In this document: in pieces, positions 1 through 10,442 of the stretch
How the letters are laid out: each line of letters opens with the position of its first letter
How positions within the stretch are numbered: position 1 is the stretch's first letter
IMG/VR virus record: IMGVR_UViG_2698536443_000025
From: a virus
Lineage: Duplodnaviria > Heunggongvirae > Uroviricota > Caudoviricetes
Strand: one strand, 5' to 3'
DNA: 11,925 nucleotides
Notes under the pieces: model-generated
Databases searched by the model: none
The model's input: the letters and a program-made list of their open reading frames with translations, nothing else
Told to the model about the DNA's origin: nothing
Program-made: the position numbers and the translations under genes

Positions 1-276
1 GTGGCTTCTGTTTCTATCAGCTGTCCCTCCTGTTCAGCTACTGACGGGGTGGTGCGTAACGGCAAAAGCACCGCCGGACATCAGCGCTATCTCTGCTCTC
101 ACTGCCGTAAAACATGGCAACTGCAGTTCACTTACACCGCTTCTCAACCCGGTACGCACCAGAAAATCATTGATATGGCCATGAATGGCGTTGGATGCCG
201 GGCAACCGCCCGCATTATGGGCGTTGGCCTCAACACGATTTTCCGCCATTTAAAAAACTCAGGCCGCAGTCGGTAA
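1..276 (+). CDS. insA: IS1 InsA (transposition inhibitor / N-terminal part of InsAB' transposase)
   Basis: 91-aa translation [37 protein letters not shown]... matches IS1 InsA as I recall it, including the zinc-finger CxxC...CxxC and helix-turn-helix region. GTG at position 1 occupies the usual insA start position. Confidence 0.9.
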
Positions 277-698
277 CCTCGCGCATACAGCCGGGCAGTG
301 ACGTCATCGTCTGCGCGGAAATGGACGAACAGTGGGGATACGTCGGGGCTAAATCGCGCCAGCGCTGGCTGTTTTACGCGTATGACAGGCTCCGGAAGAC
401 GGTTGTTGCGCACGTATTCGGTGAACGCACTATGGCGACGCTGGGGCGTCTTATGAGCCTGCTGTCACCCTTTGACGTGGTGATATGGATGACGGATGGC
501 TGGCCGCTGTATGAATCCCGCCTGAAGGGAAAGCTGCACGTAATCAGCAAGCGATATACGCAGCGAATTGAGCGGCATAACCTGAATCTGAGGCAGCACC
601 TGGCACGGCTGGGACGGAAGTCGCTGTCGTTCTCAAAATCGGTGGAGCTGCATGACAAAGTCATCGGGCATTATCTGAACATAAAACACTATCAATAA
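195..698 (+). CDS. insB: IS1 InsB frame (167 aa; expressed as InsAB' fusion after -1 frameshift)
   Basis: Translation [16 protein letters not shown]...HYLNIKHYQ matches the IS1 insB product (167 aa). It sits in the -1 frame relative to insA and overlaps its 3' end. Confidence 0.9.
252..258 (+). other. A6C programmed -1 ribosomal frameshift motif of IS1 (joins insA to insB')
   Basis: Sequence TTAAAAAACTC at 250-260 contains the AAAAAAC slippery run, just before the insA stop at 274-276, as in the known IS1 frameshift window. Confidence 0.85.
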
Positions 699-713
699 GT
701 TGGAGTCATTACC
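691..713 (+). repeat. IS1 right terminal inverted repeat (IRR)
   Basis: ATCAATAAGTTGGAGTCATTACC is the reverse complement of the IS1 end GGTAATGACTCCAACTTATTGAT. Flanking DNA starts at 714 (AGCAATTCG...). Confidence 0.9.
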
Positions 714-733
714 AGCAATTCGATAAATCCGAT

Positions 734-1027
734 GTGAAAATCGAAATGGTTTTCCTTAACCCCAACACGGGCAAGGTTGAAACTACTTACCCTGTTTTCC
801 GTGGGGTAGTCGATTCCATCGGTATTAACATCGAACATGAAGATGATGAGTGTAAAAACGAATCAGAATTTCAGCTTAATAGTATCTGGGAAGTTCTAGA
901 TAAAAACGCTCGTAGTCATGCCTCCGATGGTATCCACCGTTCCTATGTTGGAAACGAGAACGATCTATTCTTCTCCCGTGCCGGGAAGTGGAACTCAGAA
1001 AGCAAGTGGCATTCATCGAAGAAATAA
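734..1027 (+). CDS. Tail assembly protein K-like N-terminal (MPN/JAMM-like, probably inactive) domain ORF; 5' end apparently truncated by IS1
   Basis: The frame is open from inside IS1 across the junction at 713/714; the first in-frame starts are GTG 734 and ATG 746, neither with a clear Shine-Dalgarno. The translation ...EDDECKNESEF...ARSHASDGIHRSYVGNEND... loosely aligns by eye to lambda gpK residues ~20-110 (PEDC...HSHPGGLPWLSEAD), with the JAMM histidine and aspartate replaced (RSH...G). The assignment is tentative. Confidence 0.45.
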   Translation: MKIEMVFLNPNTGKVETTYPVFRGVVDSIGINIEHEDDECKNESEFQLNSIWEVLDKNARSHASDGIHRSYVGNENDLFFSRAGKWNSESKWHSSKK

Positions 1028-1073
1028 TCCCTTCTCCCTAAGCCTAGTAAATAACAGCATGGAGGTATTCAAC

Positions 1074-1493
1074 ATGCTAAAAACTAGGCTTATCACCGAT
1101 TACATCAATTCTTTAATAGGTCAGGAGTTCGTTCAAGGCGAGAATGATTGCAATCTCATTGCATGTAAGATCATCGATATTCTCGCTGGTACTGACCTAT
1201 ATAATTCTCTTTATAAAAAATATTCAACTAAAGAAGAAGGCTTGAAAATCTGCAAAGAATTAAGCGGATATTCAAACATCCTTCAACCAATTAAGAAACA
1301 TTTCAAATTAGTCACTGATGATTTACAGGACGGCGACTTACTGGTCACAGCCCACAAATTAGGAAACCGTAATTATTATTCCGTAGTTCCTCATTATTCC
1401 GGTTATGGCCTCGTTGAAGAAGATGGTATCTGGATGACCATTCCTGTTTCAGACATTGACTATGAACAAGTTTATAGATTCGGGGGTGAATAA
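1074..1493 (+). CDS. NlpC/P60-family tail assembly protein (lambda gpK C-terminal domain-like)
   Basis: GGAGG at 1061-1065 lies 8 nt before ATG 1074. The translation has GENDC (catalytic Cys candidate), GDLLVTAH and HYSGYG, which parallel lambda K GVTDC / GDVLLC / HAAIYCG. The stop TAA overlaps the next gene start (TAATG at 1491-1495). The track ORF 918-1493 is the same frame extended upstream. Confidence 0.75.
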   Translation: MLKTRLITDYINSLIGQEFVQGENDCNLIACKIIDILAGTDLYNSLYKKYSTKEEGLKICKELSGYSNILQPIKKHFKLVTDDLQDGDLLVTAHKLGNRNYYSVVPHYSGYGLVEEDGIWMTIPVSDIDYEQVYRFGGE

Positions 1494-4400
1494 TGGGATT
1501 TGAAATATTGGTAGGCGCGGTTATTGCTGGTGCGTCTGCTGGGATGGCTGCTGCTGCAACATTTTCTGTTATGACCGCAGTCGCTATCGGTATGGCTGCT
1601 GGTGCAATGACCTTGATCGCTTCCACTGTAGGCGCACCAAAAACACCTAAAGTACAAAGCCCAGATAATGCGGTGACACTAGGAACATCAAACGATCCGA
1701 AAGCGGTGATACCAGTCGTTTTCGGTACTACCCGCACTGGCACAAACTGTGTTTACAAAGCAGTTTCTAAGCAAGAAAACAATAAGCTAGTGCAAATCTT
1801 CTCTGTAGCCGAGGGTGAAATCGACCATTACAAAGCACTCTTTATTGATAATAAAAATGTTCTTGTTGGTAAGAACATGACGATCCGTGATGGTATTCTC
1901 GATAAGGGCAACATTAAAGAAGAATATCGTAAAGTATTAGAAGTCGAGTTCCGCACGGGCAAGAATCCTAACACCGCTTTGTCGCTGGCAAAACGTCATT
2001 TAGGCTCAGACTGGACCGACGCTTTCAAGGGTAACGGCATTGCGACCATGTGTATTGTGTTGCGTCGCGATGACAAATCTCTTGCTGCTGGTGTTGATAT
2101 TCTCCAGCCAAATAGCCAGGTAGCAGTAGACGTTTGCGGCCTTAAAATCCGTAACCTTGAAACCAATGCTATTGAGGCTAGCACTAACGGCGTGGATCAG
2201 ATTTTCCACTACCTAACAAATGAAAAATATGGCTTATCCGTACCAATTGAAAACATTAACGTTGATTCATTCCTGAAAGTACGTAAACAAGTACGCCAGA
2301 TGGATCTACATTCAAACGGTGCATGTGATCCGAACGCCAGCTTTAAAGAAAACTTGACTAATCTTATGCAGACTTTCGGCGGGGTGATGTTCGAATCCTT
2401 TGGACGTATTACGCTGAAACTGGATGCTCCTGATATTGTTAAGCATACCTTCAATGAAGACAATATCATGATGGGTAAGGTATCACTGAAAACAGGTGGC
2501 ACTAACGGTTATTTCAATACCATTAACGCGATGTATCAAGAACCATCAATTGACTATTCAGAGCAAATGCTACGTTATCCGGCTGATGCTGAAAACGATG
2601 CTACTGTTCGCGCAGATGGTCGAATTATTGCTAAGGATGTAGAATATCGTTTCGTTAAGTCTAAAGACCAGATTGATAAACTTGCGAGTATTGAACGAAA
2701 TAAATCTCGTATCACTCAGGTTATCAGCTTTATGACTACTGACGCATTCACTGCCGAAGTATGGGACGTTATCAGCGTAACCTATGATGAATTGAAACTG
2801 AATAATTCTTTATGGCGTATTACTGCAATTGATCGCTCGATTGATTCTGGTATTGCTGGGATGATGACTATCACCGCCACAGAATATAATTCTCAGGTTT
2901 ATACTGACCTGAACTATGCGGCAACTCCAGACAATAGACCAAGTGGTTTACCGGATTCAATGACAGTACAGAAGCCTACTAATTTCAGAATTAAGGCAAC
3001 TGGTGAGACGATTTACGGTAAAAACGTTACTTTGACATGGGATGCACCGGAAGATTTTAACCGTTATGGTTTCCAGATTGATTACCGTGTAAGCGGATCA
3101 CCTAACTGGATTAAGCTGGGACAGACTTCACAGCAAATTTTCAGTGTCAATGCACTGGCAAAAGATCGTTCCTACGATTACCGAGTTTGTGCTTTCGGTA
3201 TCATCGCGCGATCCGATTGGGTAGAACTGATTAACCAGAATCCTACTGTTACCTATGAATTGCCGACTCCGGTTATTCGAATCAAAAATCAGGGTAGCAC
3301 GCCAGGAACTTTCGAAGGTAATGATCTGATTATCGAATGGGAAAATCAGCAACAATTAGATGTTGAGATCAACGGTGAAACTAACAAGTTTAGTGACCTG
3401 TTTGAAGCATACATTATCAAGGTGACTAACAAGGCTGGTAAGTCTATTCAGTACCGTACCCGCGATCCTGAATCATGGACTTATACGCTTGATATGAACC
3501 AATTTAACGGCCTTTCGCGTCAACTGACGGTAGAAGTATCAGCTAAGGGCTATAACAACTCAGAGAGCGCCCCAGCGCGTTTAGTGGCTATCAACCCACA
3601 ACATAAGCCAATGAAAGGTTTTAGTGCGCGTGGTGGCTTTAATACTGCGTTTGTTAGCTGGGCGGATGACGTAGAACATGACTATGCAGGGTCAATCATC
3701 CAGTATGCAACCGACAACACTTTCTCAGATGCAAGGGCAGTAAGTACGAATAGTGTTAGCCATACTTCCTTTGATATTGCTGACGGTGATTATTATATCC
3801 GTGGTGCTCACTACGATATTTTCGGTATGGATGATGCTGTTTGGTCTGAACCGTATTTCATGCAAATGAAGTCTACGATTAGTTGGGACGATCAGGACAA
3901 AGAAGCACTGGAAGACCTGATCGGTTTACAAGATCGCTTAGATGAAACTATCGCGGATGCTATTAAGCAAGCTGGCGCTAATGCCGATGCTAAAATTGAT
4001 GCAATGCATAAGCAAATCACTACCGAGACGGGTAAAACTGTTCAAGCCTCAGCCGATACCTTAAAGAGTCTGATTGCTTCTGGTGATAAGGCAAGTTCAA
4101 CTAAGATTGATCAGGTTAAAGCTGAACTGAAAGGCGATATCACCAAAGAAGTTAGCGCCTCCGCTACAACCCTGAAACAAGCAATTGCAACCAGTGAGGC
4201 AGCAAGCGCAAGTAAGATTGATCAAGTTCGGGTAGAAATGGATGGCAAGATTGCTGGTGTGAATCAGGAAGCAGATGTAAAAATCGATGCTTTGAAAGGA
4301 ACCATTAACAGCAAATACAATCTGGCAGTTAATGCAGATGGTCGTGTGGCTGGTATTCACATGAGCGCAACCAACGATCCGGCACAACCGACTAAAATCA

Positions 4401-5269
4401 TCTTTACGGCTGATAAAATTGCTGTAGCTCCGCAGAACGGGACCGATGTTTGCCCGTTTGGTATCGAAGGTAACAAGGTTTATCTCGATAATGCGATGAT
4501 TCGTAATGCTGCAATTGGTACAGCCCATATTAGTGATGCGGCAATTACTACCGCTAAGATCGGCAATGCTGCAATTAACAGCGCGAAGATTCAGGACGGG
4601 GCAATCACTAACGCCAAGATTGTAAATGGCGCAATTGATAACGCTAAAATCGGTAACTATATCCAGTCTTCCAACTGGAACGGATCGACCGGATGGCATA
4701 TCAACAAGAACGGTAATGCTACGTTCATGAATGCTACCGTTAAAGGTAATATCACGGCTGATTCTGGTACTCTGAACAACGTCACGATTAACTCTAGCTG
4801 TGTTATTAAGGGTATGCTTGAAGCTACTCAGGTTAAGGGTGATTTCGTTAAGGTGATTGGTCGTAAGTTCCCACACCGTGATGTTAACGTTGATAATGGT
4901 TATGGCGGCTATCCGCAAGGTACAGTAACCGTTCGCGTTGAAGATGATCACAAGTTCGATCGTCAAATCGTTATTCCGGCGATTAGTTTTGGTGGATTGC
5001 GAGCGCGTGAAGGGTCGAACAATAATACCTATTACGACACCTGTCGCCTGATTGTTCGTAAGAATGGGTCAGAGTTGTATAATAGGGCGTATGGCGGTAA
5101 TACTGGTCTTTACTCAGGTGTTATTGATATGCCAGCGGGTAAAGGTGCTGTGACCTTGACCTTTGAAGTGCAATCAAGCGCAATCAACAACTGGACGCCT
5201 AGCACATGGATCAGTGATTTAACTGTAATGGTAACTAAAAAAGCCACTACTGGTATTACTGTTTCTTAA
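1493..5269 (+). CDS. Central tail fibre / host specificity protein J (tip attachment protein) with an N-terminal gpI-like domain
   Basis: 1258-aa ORF with GGGGGTGA 4 nt before ATG 1493. The C-terminal ~170 aa (NATVKGNITADSGTLNNVTINSSCVIKG...DRQIVIPAISF...VIDMPAGKGAVTLTF...VMVTKKATTGITVS) parallels the lambda gpJ C-terminus (NANSGTLSNVTIAENCTINGTL...DRQIVVLPLTF...IVDMPAGRGNVILTF...VMVIKKQALGISVV). Residues ~100-130 resemble the gpJ N-terminus. Residues 1-95 (hydrophobic Ala/Gly-rich stretch, then APKTPKVQSPDN and AVIPVVFGTTRTG) resemble the lambda gpI C-terminus (APKARTPRIQTTDN, NVLPVLYGEMRVG). Confidence 0.9.
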   Translation: MGFEILVGAVIAGASAGMAAAATFSVMTAVAIGMAAGAMTLIASTVGAPKTPKVQSPDNAVTLGTSNDPKAVIPVVFGTTRTGTNCVYKAVSKQENNKLVQIFSVAEGEIDHYKALFIDNKNVLVGKNMTIRDGILDKGNIKEEYRKVLEVEFRTGKNPNTALSLAKRHLGSDWTDAFKGNGIATMCIVLRRDDKSLAAGVDILQPNSQVAVDVCGLKIRNLETNAIEASTNGVDQIFHYLTNEKYGLSVPIENINVDSFLKVRKQVRQMDLHSNGACDPNASFKENLTNLMQTFGGVMFESFGRITLKLDAPDIVKHTFNEDNIMMGKVSLKTGGTNGYFNTINAMYQEPSIDYSEQMLRYPADAENDATVRADGRIIAKDVEYRFVKSKDQIDKLASIERNKSRITQVISFMTTDAFTAEVWDVISVTYDELKLNNSLWRITAIDRSIDSGIAGMMTITATEYNSQVYTDLNYAATPDNRPSGLPDSMTVQKPTNFRIKATGETIYGKNVTLTWDAPEDFNRYGFQIDYRVSGSPNWIKLGQTSQQIFSVNALAKDRSYDYRVCAFGIIARSDWVELINQNPTVTYELPTPVIRIKNQGSTPGTFEGNDLIIEWENQQQLDVEINGETNKFSDLFEAYIIKVTNKAGKSIQYRTRDPESWTYTLDMNQFNGLSRQLTVEVSAKGYNNSESAPARLVAINPQHKPMKGFSARGGFNTAFVSWADDVEHDYAGSIIQYATDNTFSDARAVSTNSVSHTSFDIADGDYYIRGAHYDIFGMDDAVWSEPYFMQMKSTISWDDQDKEALEDLIGLQDRLDETIADAIKQAGANADAKIDAMHKQITTETGKTVQASADTLKSLIASGDKASSTKIDQVKAELKGDITKEVSASATTLKQAIATSEAASASKIDQVRVEMDGKIAGVNQEADVKIDALKGTINSKYNLAVNADGRVAGIHMSATNDPAQPTKIIFTADKIAVAPQNGTDVCPFGIEGNKVYLDNAMIRNAAIGTAHISDAAITTAKIGNAAINSAKIQDGAITNAKIVNGAIDNAKIGNYIQSSNWNGSTGWHINKNGNATFMNATVKGNITADSGTLNNVTINSSCVIKGMLEATQVKGDFVKVIGRKFPHRDVNVDNGYGGYPQGTVTVRVEDDHKFDRQIVIPAISFGGLRAREGSNNNTYYDTCRLIVRKNGSELYNRAYGGNTGLYSGVIDMPAGKGAVTLTFEVQSSAINNWTPSTWISDLTVMVTKKATTGITVS
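4505..4654 (+). repeat. Five tandem 30-bp coding repeats inside J (10-aa units NAAIGTAHIS / DAAITTAKIG / NAAINSAKIQ / DGAITNAKIV / NGAIDNAKIG)
   Basis: Direct reading of 4505-4654 shows five in-frame 30-nt units with the conserved core GC(N)GCAAT...GC(N)AAGAT. It is a coding repeat with no spacers, not a CRISPR array. Confidence 0.8.
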
Positions 5270-5288
5270 AAATTTAATTTTAATAATT

Positions 5289-5330
5289 AATCCCGCTTAA
5301 TTCTTTTGAGTTAGGCGGGATTATTTTTAT
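5289..5330 (+). terminator. Rho-independent terminator downstream of J
   Basis: Inverted repeat AATCCCGC (5289-5296) / GCGGGATT (5315-5322) followed by ATTTTTAT, 20 nt after the J stop codon. The loop is long (18 nt), so efficiency is uncertain. Confidence 0.55.
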
Positions 5331-5375: not shown

Positions 5376-5654
5376 ATGACTGAAATTATATATGGCGGTA
5401 TCGGTGTTATCGCCTTAATTTGTGGTGGTCTTTGGAGACTTCACCGAAATCAATTAGCAACTGAAAATAGATTGTCGAAATTGGAATCCAGCGACGCATT
5501 GTTAAACCAGAAGTTTGAGACGATGCAGAATAACCATACTCAGATTGCTGAACGTGTTTACCAAATGGAACAAACACTACACGGTATAGAGAAGAAAGTG
5601 GTTGCGATGGATGCTAAATTTGACCAAGTTCTCGACATACTCAAACAAAAATAA
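5376..5654 (+). CDS. Membrane-anchored coiled-coil protein (92 aa), function unknown
   Basis: CGGGGG Shine-Dalgarno 5 nt before ATG 5376. N-terminal hydrophobic segment IIYGGIGVIALICGGLW, followed by a heptad-like coiled-coil region. First gene of a co-directional operon. Confidence 0.75.
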   Translation: MTEIIYGGIGVIALICGGLWRLHRNQLATENRLSKLESSDALLNQKFETMQNNHTQIAERVYQMEQTLHGIEKKVVAMDAKFDQVLDILKQK

Positions 5655-8744: not shown

Positions 8745-10424
8745 TTAAATTCCAAATTCCTGTAATGGACCTGGTATTTCCTCTTCTGGCTTCCAGTCTT
8801 TATCTGTCAGCATGTCTAAACATGGATGCAGAACAAGCCCGTTACTCTCCAGAATCTGCCTATCATTGATAGTTTTCAAATCGACAAAGATTTGTCCTTT
8901 CCTCGGTCCTCTTGAATTTTCTATTACAACTCTCTGGGTCTTGCCATCAATGTATTCCAGTACAAACAAGTTTTTGTATTTGTCAATCCTGCTACACCCG
9001 ATCCGTTTTAGAGCTTGCTTAATCTTAAACCGGACCTTAATGCGATCCTCGTTATAAACATCTTCTAAATCAAATTCTGCGAGCTTCTCCCAGCCTTGAG
9101 AGTCCACAGAATACATTTCCTCTTCTGCCATCTTAATCTGATTATAGAGTGTTTCACGCTCGCTATTGAGGGTAGTAATCTGGTCGGCTAACTCCTTCGT
9201 TGCTCCAGTCATAGCAGAAAGGGTAATCAGGTTATCAATCTTGCGTGATATCTCATCAATCTGTACTTTCAAAGCCGGAACAGGATTAGCCTTATCCTCA
9301 GCAATCCAGATTTTATCAGCCAGCAATTGCAATACAGCTTTCTCTAATTGATCACCTCGAAAACTCCAGTTTGTATGCACACATGCAATACGACTAGAGC
9401 GCATTGCATCGCATGAATAACGATATTGGTTAGGCCGTTTGTTAGTTCCTTTCACCTTAACCATAGCGGAACCGCAATGTTCACATTTCAGCAGATTAAC
9501 ACCACTAAGCAGGGGGATCGGTTTAGCTTCTTCTTTGTCTCCATAGTTACATGCTCTAACACCAATGCTTTTCTTAAGGTGATAAAACTCAGCGTCATCT
9601 AGCACACGAGGGTAATAATCCTTTAACTCATACTTAACGCCATCTACAGAGATTTCCTTGATACCAATCAAAGCGCGGGTATGGAACAACCTTTCAATCA
9701 TTGCCCGTGACCAGTTTGAATGCCTCTTGTGACTTGCGGCTGGTGGTGGTGTGTATGTCGCGTTAAGGTGATCCAGTATCTCGGCGGTTGACCGTCCATT
9801 CCTGCGTAATTCCACAACTTCCTGAACAATAGGGAAGAAGACCGGATGAGGAAGCACATAACCAGATGTGGTATCAGTCCACCACATATTCTTTCCAATT
9901 TCCTCGATTGCAACAGCCGGATTTTGTGGATTTTCTTGATGAGCTTTAATCTTAATCAGTGCGCTTGAGTTAGTACGATTGCGCTTAGTCTGGCTTTCCT
10001 CATTACCACGGATGAATAAAAGGATGGAGAACATCAGGTCCATCGGGTTAGCGGTAACAGTATCAAGCGAGTAGATCTTGTTATCCATGCCAGTAACAAT
10101 GGTTATCCCCCTACGGATGATTGAAAGGAATAACTCCTGCGCACTGACAATATCGGCACGGGATAAACGGTCCAAGTTTTCGATGAATAGCCAGCTACCA
10201 ACAGGAACGGATCTACCTATTGCATCAAGGAAACGAGATAGCGCCCCTGTTTTGGAGTTAGCACCCTTAAACGCAGATACACCCAGATCCTGATAATCAT
10301 TTACCAGTTCAAGGTCATACTTTACCGCAATCTCTCTAGCCATCCTGATTTGTCGTTCATAACTCGAACCATCATTCTGACGCATAGACGAGAAGCGAAT
10401 ATACGAATACAGTTTAGTTTTCAT
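8745..10424 (-). CDS. Large serine recombinase (putative serine integrase)
   Basis: The N-terminal resolvase-type catalytic domain has YIRFSSMRQ (catalytic Ser) and ENLDRLSR. It is followed by a recombinase domain, a zinc ribbon (CEHCGS...YRYSC...AC) and a coiled-coil region. Start taken at ATG 10424-10422 (MKTKLYSYIRFSS); the track ORF starts at an in-frame TTG at 10439. Confidence 0.9.
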   Translation of the reverse strand: MKTKLYSYIRFSSMRQNDGSSYERQIRMAREIAVKYDLELVNDYQDLGVSAFKGANSKTGALSRFLDAIGRSVPVGSWLFIENLDRLSRADIVSAQELFLSIIRRGITIVTGMDNKIYSLDTVTANPMDLMFSILLFIRGNEESQTKRNRTNSSALIKIKAHQENPQNPAVAIEEIGKNMWWTDTTSGYVLPHPVFFPIVQEVVELRRNGRSTAEILDHLNATYTPPPAASHKRHSNWSRAMIERLFHTRALIGIKEISVDGVKYELKDYYPRVLDDAEFYHLKKSIGVRACNYGDKEEAKPIPLLSGVNLLKCEHCGSAMVKVKGTNKRPNQYRYSCDAMRSSRIACVHTNWSFRGDQLEKAVLQLLADKIWIAEDKANPVPALKVQIDEISRKIDNLITLSAMTGATKELADQITTLNSERETLYNQIKMAEEEMYSVDSQGWEKLAEFDLEDVYNEDRIKVRFKIKQALKRIGCSRIDKYKNLFVLEYIDGKTQRVVIENSRGPRKGQIFVDLKTINDRQILESNGLVLHPCLDMLTDKDWKPEEEIPGPLQEFGI

Positions 10425-10442
10425 ACCATTTCCAAACAAAAA

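Follow-up and report, generated by a model that had tools for sequence, protein, structure and literature searches.

A gpI-like N-terminal module in the single-frame tail tip protein of an Escherichia coli prophage

Lambda gpI (PDB 8IYK, 8XCG and 9E7M; TAPI family) is a separate polypeptide with a ubiquitin-like N-terminal domain, followed at residues 105–207 by the hydrophobic helices H1 and H2, a plug and beta strands. The plug occupies residues 159–175, the beta strands augment the sheets of gpJ (PMC11101478; PMC10721106), and the plug and H1/H2 have been described along with a contact between gpI and the C-terminus of gpH (PMC11101478; PMC10721106; PMC12617516). The gene transfer agent RcGTA and roseophage R4C are arranged differently. 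The RcGTA tip protein g15 (Rcc01698; PDB 6TEH/6TBA) is a long chain that opens with hydrophobic helices, and the RcGTA and R4C megatrons' iris/penetration domain (residues 1–46) closes the tail channel and has been predicted to enter the outer membrane (PMC7296036; PMC10276861). Both systems, RcGTA with its g13-g14-g15 genes and R4C (PDB 8GTC), have a small hub gene two genes upstream of the megatron gene, a small gene between them and no I gene (PMC7296036; PMC10276861; PMC10721106). In phage T5, the plug that closes the tube belongs to the same chain as the hub, pb3 (PDB 7ZHJ, 7ZQB and 8HQZ), and lies just upstream of residue 262 (T5 preprint 10.1101/2022.09.20.507954). Fusions of TAPI with TAPJ were noted in some prophages by Iyer, Burroughs and Aravind in 2006, with a TAPI-C domain following a glycine-rich linker (PMC1779556).

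The window analysed here, a stretch of 11,925 nucleotides from a virus of the class Caudoviricetes (IMG/VR record IMGVR_UViG_2698536443_000025), has the layout of RcGTA and R4C. Judged by profile comparison, residues ~1–93 of its tip protein share ancestry with the C-terminal half of lambda gpI, which comprises H1/H2, the plug and the beta strands. We consider it quite likely that the protein, 1258 aa long, forms the tip (central fibre) of a siphovirus-type prophage with a two-chain hub, and that these ~93 residues have a plug/insertion role. The features are as follows:

1–714, plus strand: IS1 (insA/insB, partial at the window edge) within the baseplate hub gene, from the IS1 end sequence and homology to the intact hub
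715–1027, plus strand: 3' remnant of the hub gene, g13/DUF2163 type, corresponding to residues ~114–217 of the 217-aa intact hub (blastn, translation)
1074–1493, plus strand: DUF6950 gene, 139 aa, in the position of lambda K and RcGTA g14 (Pfam DUF6950, E 3.3e-12; phrog_2134)
1482–1489, plus strand: Shine-Dalgarno-like GGGGGTGA before the tip gene, read directly from the sequence
1493–5269, plus strand: tail tip/central fibre gene, 1258 aa, with a megatron-type hub part and then a lambda-type distal fibre
1493–1633, plus strand: residues 1–47, a pair of Gly/Ala-rich hydrophobic helices that correspond to gpI H1/H2 and to the iris/penetration domain of megatrons (hydropathy, hhalign to gpI 105–~155, N-terminal family profile)
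1634–1771, plus strand: residues 48–93, plug/linker and beta-strand motif IPVVFGTTRTG, equivalent to gpI 156–208 (TAPI-C; BLASTP, hhalign, profile matches)
1772–1897, plus strand: residues 94–135, equivalent to the gpJ N-terminus (gpJ 20–59), with the motif LVQIFSVAEGEI (hhalign 94%, E 1.3e-7)
2345–2833, plus strand: residues 285–447, hub domain region (Pfam Phage-tail_3, below threshold at 19.5 bits against a cut-off of 23)
3014–3202, plus strand: residues 508–570, fibronectin type III domain (weak Pfam fn3 match; PDB fn3 matches with the family profile)
4283–4576, plus strand: residues 931–1028, lambda-type tail tip fibre domain (Pfam Phage_Tail_Tip, PF09327, E 4e-20, above cut-off)
4862–5266, plus strand: residues 1124–1258, gpJ-type C-terminal receptor-binding domain (Pfam Ig_GpJ_C, PF12421, E 7.6e-34, above cut-off)

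The ORFs at 1–276 and 195–698 are, as we take them by eye from their translations, InsA and InsB of IS1. The IS1 end sequence (...GGAGTCATTACC) stops at 714, and homology to the intact hub of strain H2 restarts at ~711–715, the frame-2 translation QFDKSDVKIEM... matching the H2 hub from residue ~114; by blastn, the remnant is 94.6% identical to the intact copy in the locus designated L001. Because IS1 breaks the hub gene, the copy in the window is unlikely to give a functional tail. The intact hub, which in E. coli H2 (NZ_CP028733, prophage at ~2.52–2.55 Mb) is WP_236474912, scores 26.4 bits for the baseplate hub N-terminal attachment domain of Pfam (PF09931; cut-off 26), and searches of PDB sequences with the hub protein gave nothing useful. 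The HDI-type attachment domain lies on this separate small hub protein, and matches of the family profile to T5 pb3 and gpJ place HDII–HDIV, with approximate boundaries, in the tip chain, in agreement with RcGTA and R4C. RcGTA g13 carries an Fe-S site; with just two cysteines, the 217-aa hub of strain H2 lacks the four-cysteine Fe-S site of gpL and g13, so that the assembly would be a straight copy of neither the gpL nor the g13 model.

The next gene, labelled NlpC/P60 in the first-pass annotation, is a member of Pfam DUF6950 and not a called NlpC/P60; the NlpC/P60 region of gpK touches DUF6950 only weakly (E 0.067), and the DUF6950 protein of the window had no matches in the PDB sequence search or the NCBIfam scan. 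GxNDC and GDL motifs are kept in the upstream genes of diverged relatives, and this conservation suggests a papain-like fold. The corresponding gene of RcGTA is the peptidase g14, and lambda gpK, in the same position, has a JAB domain, which was not found in the DUF6950 gene product.

A putative cysteine-peptidase-like gene directly upstream of the tip gene raises the question whether the module is made within the long protein and later cleaved from it, for instance by the product of the DUF6950 gene, to yield a free gpI-C-like virion peptide as in lambda. Tail proteins of lambda and T5 are indeed processed in assembly (PMC12617516; T5 preprint 10.1101/2022.09.20.507954). We nevertheless regard such cleavage as unlikely, given that the N-terminal helix of both RcGTA and R4C was modelled within the megatron chain (PMC7296036; PMC10276861) and that a subset of relatives keeps the N-terminal module while lacking the DUF6950 gene.

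The tip ORF runs from the ATG at 1493 to a stop codon at 5267–5269. The first-pass annotation had described it as a single ORF with a Shine-Dalgarno sequence at its ATG, and this description holds for GGGGGTGA and the 1258-codon frame alike; in TAATG (1491–1495), the last A of the stop codon TAA of the upstream DUF6950 gene is also the first base of the ATG. The strongly hydrophobic residues 1–47 (Kyte-Doolittle 19-residue means of 1.35–1.83) and the segment following them were said to resemble, over ~95 residues, the C-terminal domain of gpI. In hhalign, the N-terminus of the family aligned with nine standalone gpI proteins at 96.9% (E 1.9e-10), with tip residues 5–91 corresponding to gpI 105–207, which bears out the proposed resemblance. 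A search for gpI proteins through related loci returned near-identical copies only, and the diverse gpI proteins were therefore collected individually. A BLASTP alignment of residues 48–92 with gpI 156–208 showed 36% identity (E 1e-5 for one pairwise comparison), and in a phmmer search of the whole PDB with residues 1–130 lambda gpI was the sole match, at E 0.17; a gpI HMM gave E 0.2–0.7 against the tip ORF. The similarity to gpI is, in general, weak or marginal with single sequences and significant with profiles. Both the tip N-terminus and gpI match phrog_31, at overlapping profile positions, and a profile built only from standalone gpI matched 38 of 150 long relatives, always within the first 170 residues, with no match in the reversed-sequence control.

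The weak single-sequence scores, the ease with which hydrophobic segments align and weak glycine-zipper-type Pfam matches on some family members might also be expected if the N-terminus were a generic membrane anchor or a low-complexity Ala/Gly stretch whose likeness to gpI is a compositional accident. We find this quite improbable. Residues 48–93 alone, with the hydrophobic helices left out, still align with gpI at 96% (E 4.8e-9), and among 30 column-shuffled controls the highest scores were 15.9, against 61.3 for the real alignment of the whole N-terminus, and 21.4, against 47.3 for the non-hydrophobic part. The order of helices, linker and PxPxxYGxxRxG is common to the tip family and the gpI family, the strand of gpI reading PxLYGxxRVG. 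Furthermore, the N-terminal family profile selected from the whole PDB T5 pb3 (E 9e-18), RcGTA g15 (E 1.7e-6), the R4C megatron (E 2.7e-4), lambda gpI (E 4e-4) and the gpI-like protein of the F2 pyocin, aligning with g15 residues 5–201 and with the R4C megatron from residue 4. The only other strong PDB matches of the profile were two designed helical-repeat proteins, built of many weak repeats. Hydrophobic low-complexity helices may inflate profile scores in comparisons of this kind, although the non-hydrophobic part keeps its 96% when scored by itself. Homology to the C-terminal half of gpI remains the reading adopted here.

The comparison of residues 1–130 with the Pfam family Lambda_tail_I that had been suggested earlier gave no match and could not have worked. 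PF06805 had no match at E<=1, whether the whole tip protein or only its first 136–140 residues were scanned, and a Pfam scan of 22 family N-termini gave no Lambda_tail_I match either. The PF06805 model matches only gpI 14–97 (E 1e-28), and these negative results are therefore uninformative on homology to the C-terminal part of gpI. As for the N-terminal domain of gpI, reported as missing, no ubiquitin-like domain was found in the tip protein, and a full-length gpI family HMM detected no ubiquitin-like gpI region in six frames of the window or of the 36.6-kb L001 locus of the intact copy. The fusions described in 2006 included the ubiquitin-like domain, whereas the tip protein has the equivalent of TAPI-C only (PMC1779556). 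Unlike gpI, the module is not a separate polypeptide either: there is no I gene between the K position and the tip gene, the six-frame scan of the window and of L001 revealed no other gpI-like ORF, and the claim that a separate I gene is absent upstream of the tip gene is thereby upheld.

The reading frame passes without a stop into gpJ-like sequence, as had been proposed, residues 95–131 aligning with gpJ 20–59 (hhalign 94%, E 1.3e-7). The same pair of motifs is contiguous in T5 pb3, where residues 262–320 read IPVVYG...AFAEGEI. The hub part that follows is, by sequence, not lambda-like. Matches of the family profile in the hub region are to T5 pb3 261–876 (E 5e-61), the best-scoring solved relative, and to lambda gpJ (E 1.6e-31), so that by profile the first ~900 residues are closer to pb3 than to gpJ. 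Pfam domains FNIII-A_GpJ, Ig_J and Ig_J_second, all found in lambda gpJ, were not detected in the tip protein at E<=1. The relationship to g15 is remote, and the tip sequence alone gives no g15 match in the PDB. T5 pb3 also differs in that its single chain includes HDI, whereas the HDI-type domain is here on the separate hub and the profile matches begin at pb3 ~261; the pb3 plug is an internal insertion refolding into beta-hairpin legs, in contrast to the N-terminal hydrophobic helices of the tip protein; and the T5 fibre and receptor-binding protein are separate (pb4 and pb5), whereas both are part of one chain here.

Over its C-terminal 320 residues the protein plainly resembles lambda J, sharing Phage_Tail_Tip and Ig_GpJ_C with gpJ, and a lambda-type ancestor is real for this part of the gene. 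It could accordingly be argued that a lambda-type tail operon has recently, and in this lineage only, lost the 5' half of I together with the I–J intergenic region by an in-frame deletion. This is very improbable: phmmer similarity to lambda J begins only at residue ~950 and the first ~900 residues have none, the upstream neighbours are a PF09931/DUF2163 hub gene and DUF6950 instead of gpL and gpK, and the same N-terminus occurs throughout a very diverged family, RcGTA g15 included. The tip protein is better read as a megatron-type hub chain that carries its plug module at the start and a lambda-type fibre at the end. Two-chain hubs consisting of a separate hub protein and a megatron-type tip were already known; here the arrangement comes with a lambda-like distal fibre and receptor-binding domain in place of the fibre-binding domain of the megatron.

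Analysis of the distribution of this layout showed that it is common. Relative diversity was drawn from viral contigs and an exhaustive profile search, the latter yielding 3291 clusters (50% identity) for the family. Among the 150 top-ranking relatives in this family, at least 96 have the same N-terminus by strict criteria. The single open frame is kept in about 45 diverged relatives on viral contigs (22–50% identity), groups at 46–52% and at 22–26% identity included, and the gene order TMP-Dit-hub-DUF6950-tip is conserved and contains no I ORF. All 30 close relatives, among which the first 1500 nt occur in 29 distinct alleles, start at the same ATG and read through the junction without a stop. 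In megablast, positions 700–5300 matched 57 E. coli genomes (54 of them over at least 80% of the query), in all cases chromosomes, with no match in the phage and plasmid collections. The RefSeq annotation of the tip gene, in 57 genomes of E. coli, is 'phage tail tip protein', and strain H2 is annotated with the same 1258-aa CDS. Word-indexed protein searches returned few proteins, mostly truncated, and no full-length relative, and tblastn of the N-terminus against deposited phages found one record. The dN/dS ratio of the I-like part (0.13–0.23) indicates that it is under purifying selection.

The idea that a sequencing or assembly error dropped a stop or shifted the frame, merging I and J, is already refuted by the shared ATG and open frame of the close and diverged relatives, by the H2 CDS and the coverage in E. 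coli genomes and by the dN/dS values, and deserves practically no credence. It has no support of its own and was raised only since lambda has two genes. The stop codon or separate I gene that related prophages might have revealed was found in none of the close or diverged relatives. Of the apparent I–J fusion of the first-pass annotation, the domain assignment stands; an anomalous or recent fusion does not, the single frame being general in the 3291-cluster family. To have a gpI-C module joined to a J-like protein is usual and widespread, and gene transfer agents and T5 were known examples of it.

By analogy with the solved lambda, RcGTA, R4C and T5 tips, the baseplate hub would consist of two chains, the small g13/DUF2163-type hub protein and the long megatron-type tip protein, and the hub cone would enclose the N-terminal module in three copies. 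The AlphaFold2 model of tip residues 1–500 (six-sequence alignment, mean pLDDT 33.8) was unusable, so that we only infer this position of the module. The hydrophobic helices and the segment next to them would seal the lumen of the tube and form a support for the tape measure protein's C-terminus, and the IPVVFG strand may thread the hub domains by beta-sheet augmentation and run on into the first hub strand (LVQIFSVAEGEI). Binding of the lambda-like C-terminal domain to an outer-membrane receptor would then make the hub domains swing out and release the plug, and the hydrophobic helices would sink into the outer membrane and clear a path for the tape measure protein and DNA. On this analogy, the N-terminus probably serves both as a plug of the tail tube and as the part that enters the outer membrane. 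In a phmmer search of the PDB, the C-terminal domain matched 9wca, 'A8 gpJ 713' (E 6.5e-54), and lambda gpJ (E 6e-35); a literature search found no receptor for 'A8 gpJ', the closest receptor-binding domain.

These results leave the current understanding unchanged and matter mainly for annotation and for the reading of tail-tip modules. Tail operons that seemingly have no gene I would keep its function in a plug/insertion module at the start of the tip protein, to which Pfam is blind because its gpI model covers only the ubiquitin-like domain. At the level of sequence, the family forms a bridge that unites, as one homologous module, three elements that were described separately before: the C-terminal half of gpI, the megatron N-terminus and T5 pb3 from residue 262. 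We offer only as a tentative suggestion, and one about which we have more doubt than conviction, that the joined state (TAPI-C on the tip protein, neither a ubiquitin-like domain nor a neighbouring JAB domain being present) is ancestral and commonest, lambda gpI having arisen by gene fission with recruitment of the ubiquitin-like domain and of the gpK JAB peptidase to handle it. If so, the family would be a natural control in which the pair is dispensable for plug and membrane-insertion function, and the only use of the ubiquitin-like and JAB domains would be in delivering or assembling a free I polypeptide. The two domains are absent together here, which fits the 2006 proposal that they work as a pair.

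The window covers the tail end of an Escherichia coli prophage and carries the following features.

1-714: IS1 copy (InsA/InsB translations, identified by eye)
715-1027: 3' remnant of the baseplate hub gene, split by IS1 after about codon 113 of 217
1074-1493: DUF6950 gene, 139 aa (Pfam E 3e-12)
1493-5269: tail tip protein gene, 1258 aa
downstream of the tip gene: small genes and a peptidase M15-like lysis gene (named so in RefSeq for strain H2)
8745-10439, minus strand: large serine recombinase, 564 aa, likely the integrase

Of 5426 complete E. coli genomes, 57 contain the 700-5300 region, in every case on the chromosome and with 80-97% identity; near matches were absent among deposited phages and plasmids. 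In the intact prophage of strain H2 (36.6-kb locus L001), the gene order is terminase, portal, capsid, tail tube, tape measure (810 aa), distal tail protein (186 aa), hub (217 aa), DUF6950 and tip protein (1258 aa). This prophage adjoins a truncated hicB and ydcR (L001 23097-26433), pointing to hicB, or a position next to it, as the integration site. Its 'major capsid protein' (L001 3333-5339) is unusually long at 668 aa, and a 1176-aa tail-fibre-domain gene (L001 7148-10678) separates the head genes from the tail tube gene.

The ATG of the tip gene at 1493 overlaps the TAA of the DUF6950 gene by one base (TAATG) and is preceded by GGGGGTGA at 1482-1489. Residues 1-47 are rich in Gly and Ala and strongly hydrophobic, residues 48-93 read APKTPKVQSPDNAVTLGTSNDPKAVIPVVFGTTRTGTNCVYKAVS, and residues 95-131 begin NNKLVQIFSVAEGEIDHYKALFIDNKNVL. 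AlphaFold2 modelling of residues 1-500 gave no usable structure (pLDDT 34). A 132-aa antisense ORF (1345-1743, minus strand) runs across the 5' end of the tip gene; since selection acts on the plus-strand frame, this ORF most likely arises incidentally from the Ala/Gly-rich codons of that strand. Directly 3' of the tip gene lies a 92-aa ORF (5376-5654) with an N-terminal hydrophobic segment, kept in strain H2 as a 279-nt CDS (L001 20661-20939).

Single-sequence evidence for likeness to lambda gpI is weak: in a single BLASTP comparison, residues 48-92 aligned with gpI 156-208 (36% identity, E 1e-5), and a phmmer search of the whole PDB with residues 1-130 returned gpI as its only match, with E 0.17. 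Pfam scans of this N-terminus gave no match to the gpI model PF06805 because that model is confined to the ubiquitin-like domain (gpI residues 14-97); the Pfam comparison proposed in the first-pass annotation could therefore not succeed. Profile-based evidence is significant. A profile of N-termini from 23 diverged members of the family was compared with nine aligned standalone gpI proteins, whose sources include lambda-, T1- and N15-like phages; residues 5-91 corresponded to gpI 105-207 (hhalign, 96.9% probability, E 1.9e-10), and still did so without the hydrophobic helices (96%, E 4.8e-9); the real scores were 61.3 and 47.3, against maxima of 15.9 and 21.4 in column-shuffled controls (n = 30). 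In the reverse test, a profile of gpI C-terminal halves alone matched 38 of 150 long family representatives, always inside the first 170 residues and never in reversed sequences. The next segment, residues 95-131, corresponded to gpJ 20-59 (94%, E 1.3e-7), and the window N-terminus and gpI match overlapping positions of PHROG 31 ('central tail fiber J'). Thus, the first-pass annotation had assigned the domains correctly, a gpI C-terminal domain followed by the gpJ N-terminus in one ORF that lacks the ubiquitin-like N-terminal domain of gpI. It was also right that there is no separate I gene: a six-frame gpI-profile scan of the window and the H2 locus found no second gpI-like region besides the tip N-terminus.

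The same annotation regarded the fusion as unusual and possibly an artefact, which a stop codon or separate I gene in related prophages would reveal. This proved wrong. In 30 close IMG/VR relatives (90-100% identity, 29 distinct alleles) the start codon is the same and the frame is open across the junction. Pairwise dN/dS over codons 1-95 was 0.13-0.23 in four relatives with at least 17 differences there, against 0.02-0.08 over codons 96-500; the closest relative gave 0.35 for codons 1-95, a value resting on two differences. Colinearity from residue 1 also holds for Citrobacter, Klebsiella and Salmonella relatives (46-82% identity), and the diverged viral-contig relatives (22-26% identity, 5' end inside the contig) all keep one ORF with the same order: hydrophobic helix or helices, polar linker, P-I-P-V-I-Y-G-x-R-R-V-G-G and then L-H-x-V-x-A-L-x-E-G-E-I. 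When 1.84 billion representative proteins were searched exhaustively with a profile, 3291 clusters matched at E <= 0.001. Among the best 150 of these, 96 have, under strict criteria, an N-terminal hydrophobic helix and plug motif, most of the others show the module by eye, and a few begin directly at the motif; the median length of the best-150 representatives classed as fused is about 1065 aa. Most diverged loci keep the order tape measure, distal tail protein, hub, DUF6950-like gene and tip protein, a subset lacks the DUF6950-like gene, and none of those examined has a separate I-like ORF.

Variants of the module occur in loci L068-L078 and in family representatives P0040, P0042, P0056, P0057, P0061 and P0080; in one group a single hydrophobic helix is followed by a charged Gln/Lys/Glu-rich stretch and the YG motif, and there is no DUF6950 gene. 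A few long proteins begin at the YG motif without a hydrophobic helix; this reflects either wrongly assigned gene starts or helices encoded at another place. Among deposited phages, a homologue of the N-terminus (36% identity) occurs in one record alone, Escherichia phage DCP80 (PQ671644, locus L159, 4701-12675). This phage is classified in Straboviridae (T4-like, 141 kb) but has the siphovirus-type module TMP-Dit-hub-DUF6950-tip; the record may be chimeric or misclassified.

A profile combining residues 1-215 of the window protein with 26 diverse representatives matched the following PDB entries.

T5 pb3, residues 262-442: E 9e-18
RcGTA g15 'megatron' (6TBA/6TEH), residues 5-201: E 1.7e-6
F2-pyocin gpI-like protein, residues 106-192: E 2e-4
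Roseophage R4C megatron (8GTC), from residue 4: E 2.7e-4
Lambda gpI, residues 108-214: E 3.7e-4

Profile positions ~7-100 are common to the C-terminal half of gpI and the N-termini of both megatrons, and both strand motifs are contiguous in pb3 262-320. The relation to RcGTA is seen by family profile only. The full-length family profile matched pb3 with E 5e-61 and gpJ with E 1.6e-31. In published structures, lambda L-K-I-J is treated as the equivalent of RcGTA 13-14-15 and of the one-chain T5 pb3 (PMC10721106), and fusion of TAPI to TAPJ in some prophages was noted in a 2006 survey, which named the TAPI-C domain (PMC1779556). The window tip protein is a new, uncharacterised member of a known, common architecture.

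The hub protein of intact copies matches PF09931 (baseplate hub attachment domain), not gpL's family, so the hub here is of the two-chain kind known from R4C and from RcGTA (g13 hub, g14 peptidase, g15 megatron). Whereas gpL and g13 share a four-cysteine iron-sulfur site, the strain H2 hub (L001 15661-16311) has only two cysteines and therefore no such site. Lambda gpK has JAB and NlpC/P60 matches, but the protein in the K position here has no JAB domain; its absence together with that of the ubiquitin-like domain fits the proposal that the two form a functional pair (PMC1779556).

Lambda gpI folds over residues 101-223 into two hydrophobic helices, strands that thread gaps between the gpJ hub domains, and a plug (159-175); lying under the C-terminal coiled coil of the tape measure protein, the plug closes the tube. 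Upon LamB binding the hub domains move outwards, the plug separates and the helices, proposed to insert into the outer membrane, are lost from density (PMC11101478, PMC10721106, PMC12617516). In RcGTA and R4C, the first megatron helix is an iris closing the channel, and the prediction is that it lines a pore (PMC7296036, PMC10276861). By analogy with these homologues, the module of the window protein would act in the same way, and it would be covalently continuous with the first hub strand.

The tip protein is also a mosaic: over its last ~320 residues it resembles lambda J (Phage_Tail_Tip, Ig_GpJ_C), and phmmer found no lambda J likeness in residues ~1-900. The receptor-binding end (4694-5266, residues 1067-1258) matched PDB 9wca 'A8 gpJ 713' (E 6.5e-54) more closely than lambda gpJ (E 4e-36), which suggests that the receptor is an outer-membrane protein, perhaps one other than LamB; a literature search found no paper on 'A8 gpJ 713'.

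Because IS1 (within 1-1027) splits the hub gene, which is of the g13/DUF2163 type, the tail module of the window copy is probably non-functional and unable to support tail assembly. IS1 is also present within the matched region of strain 14EC007 (NZ_CP024131). Two close IMG/VR relatives (L016 and L022) have premature stops in the tip gene well inside their contigs (830 and 599 aa), and therefore some copies of this prophage are decaying.
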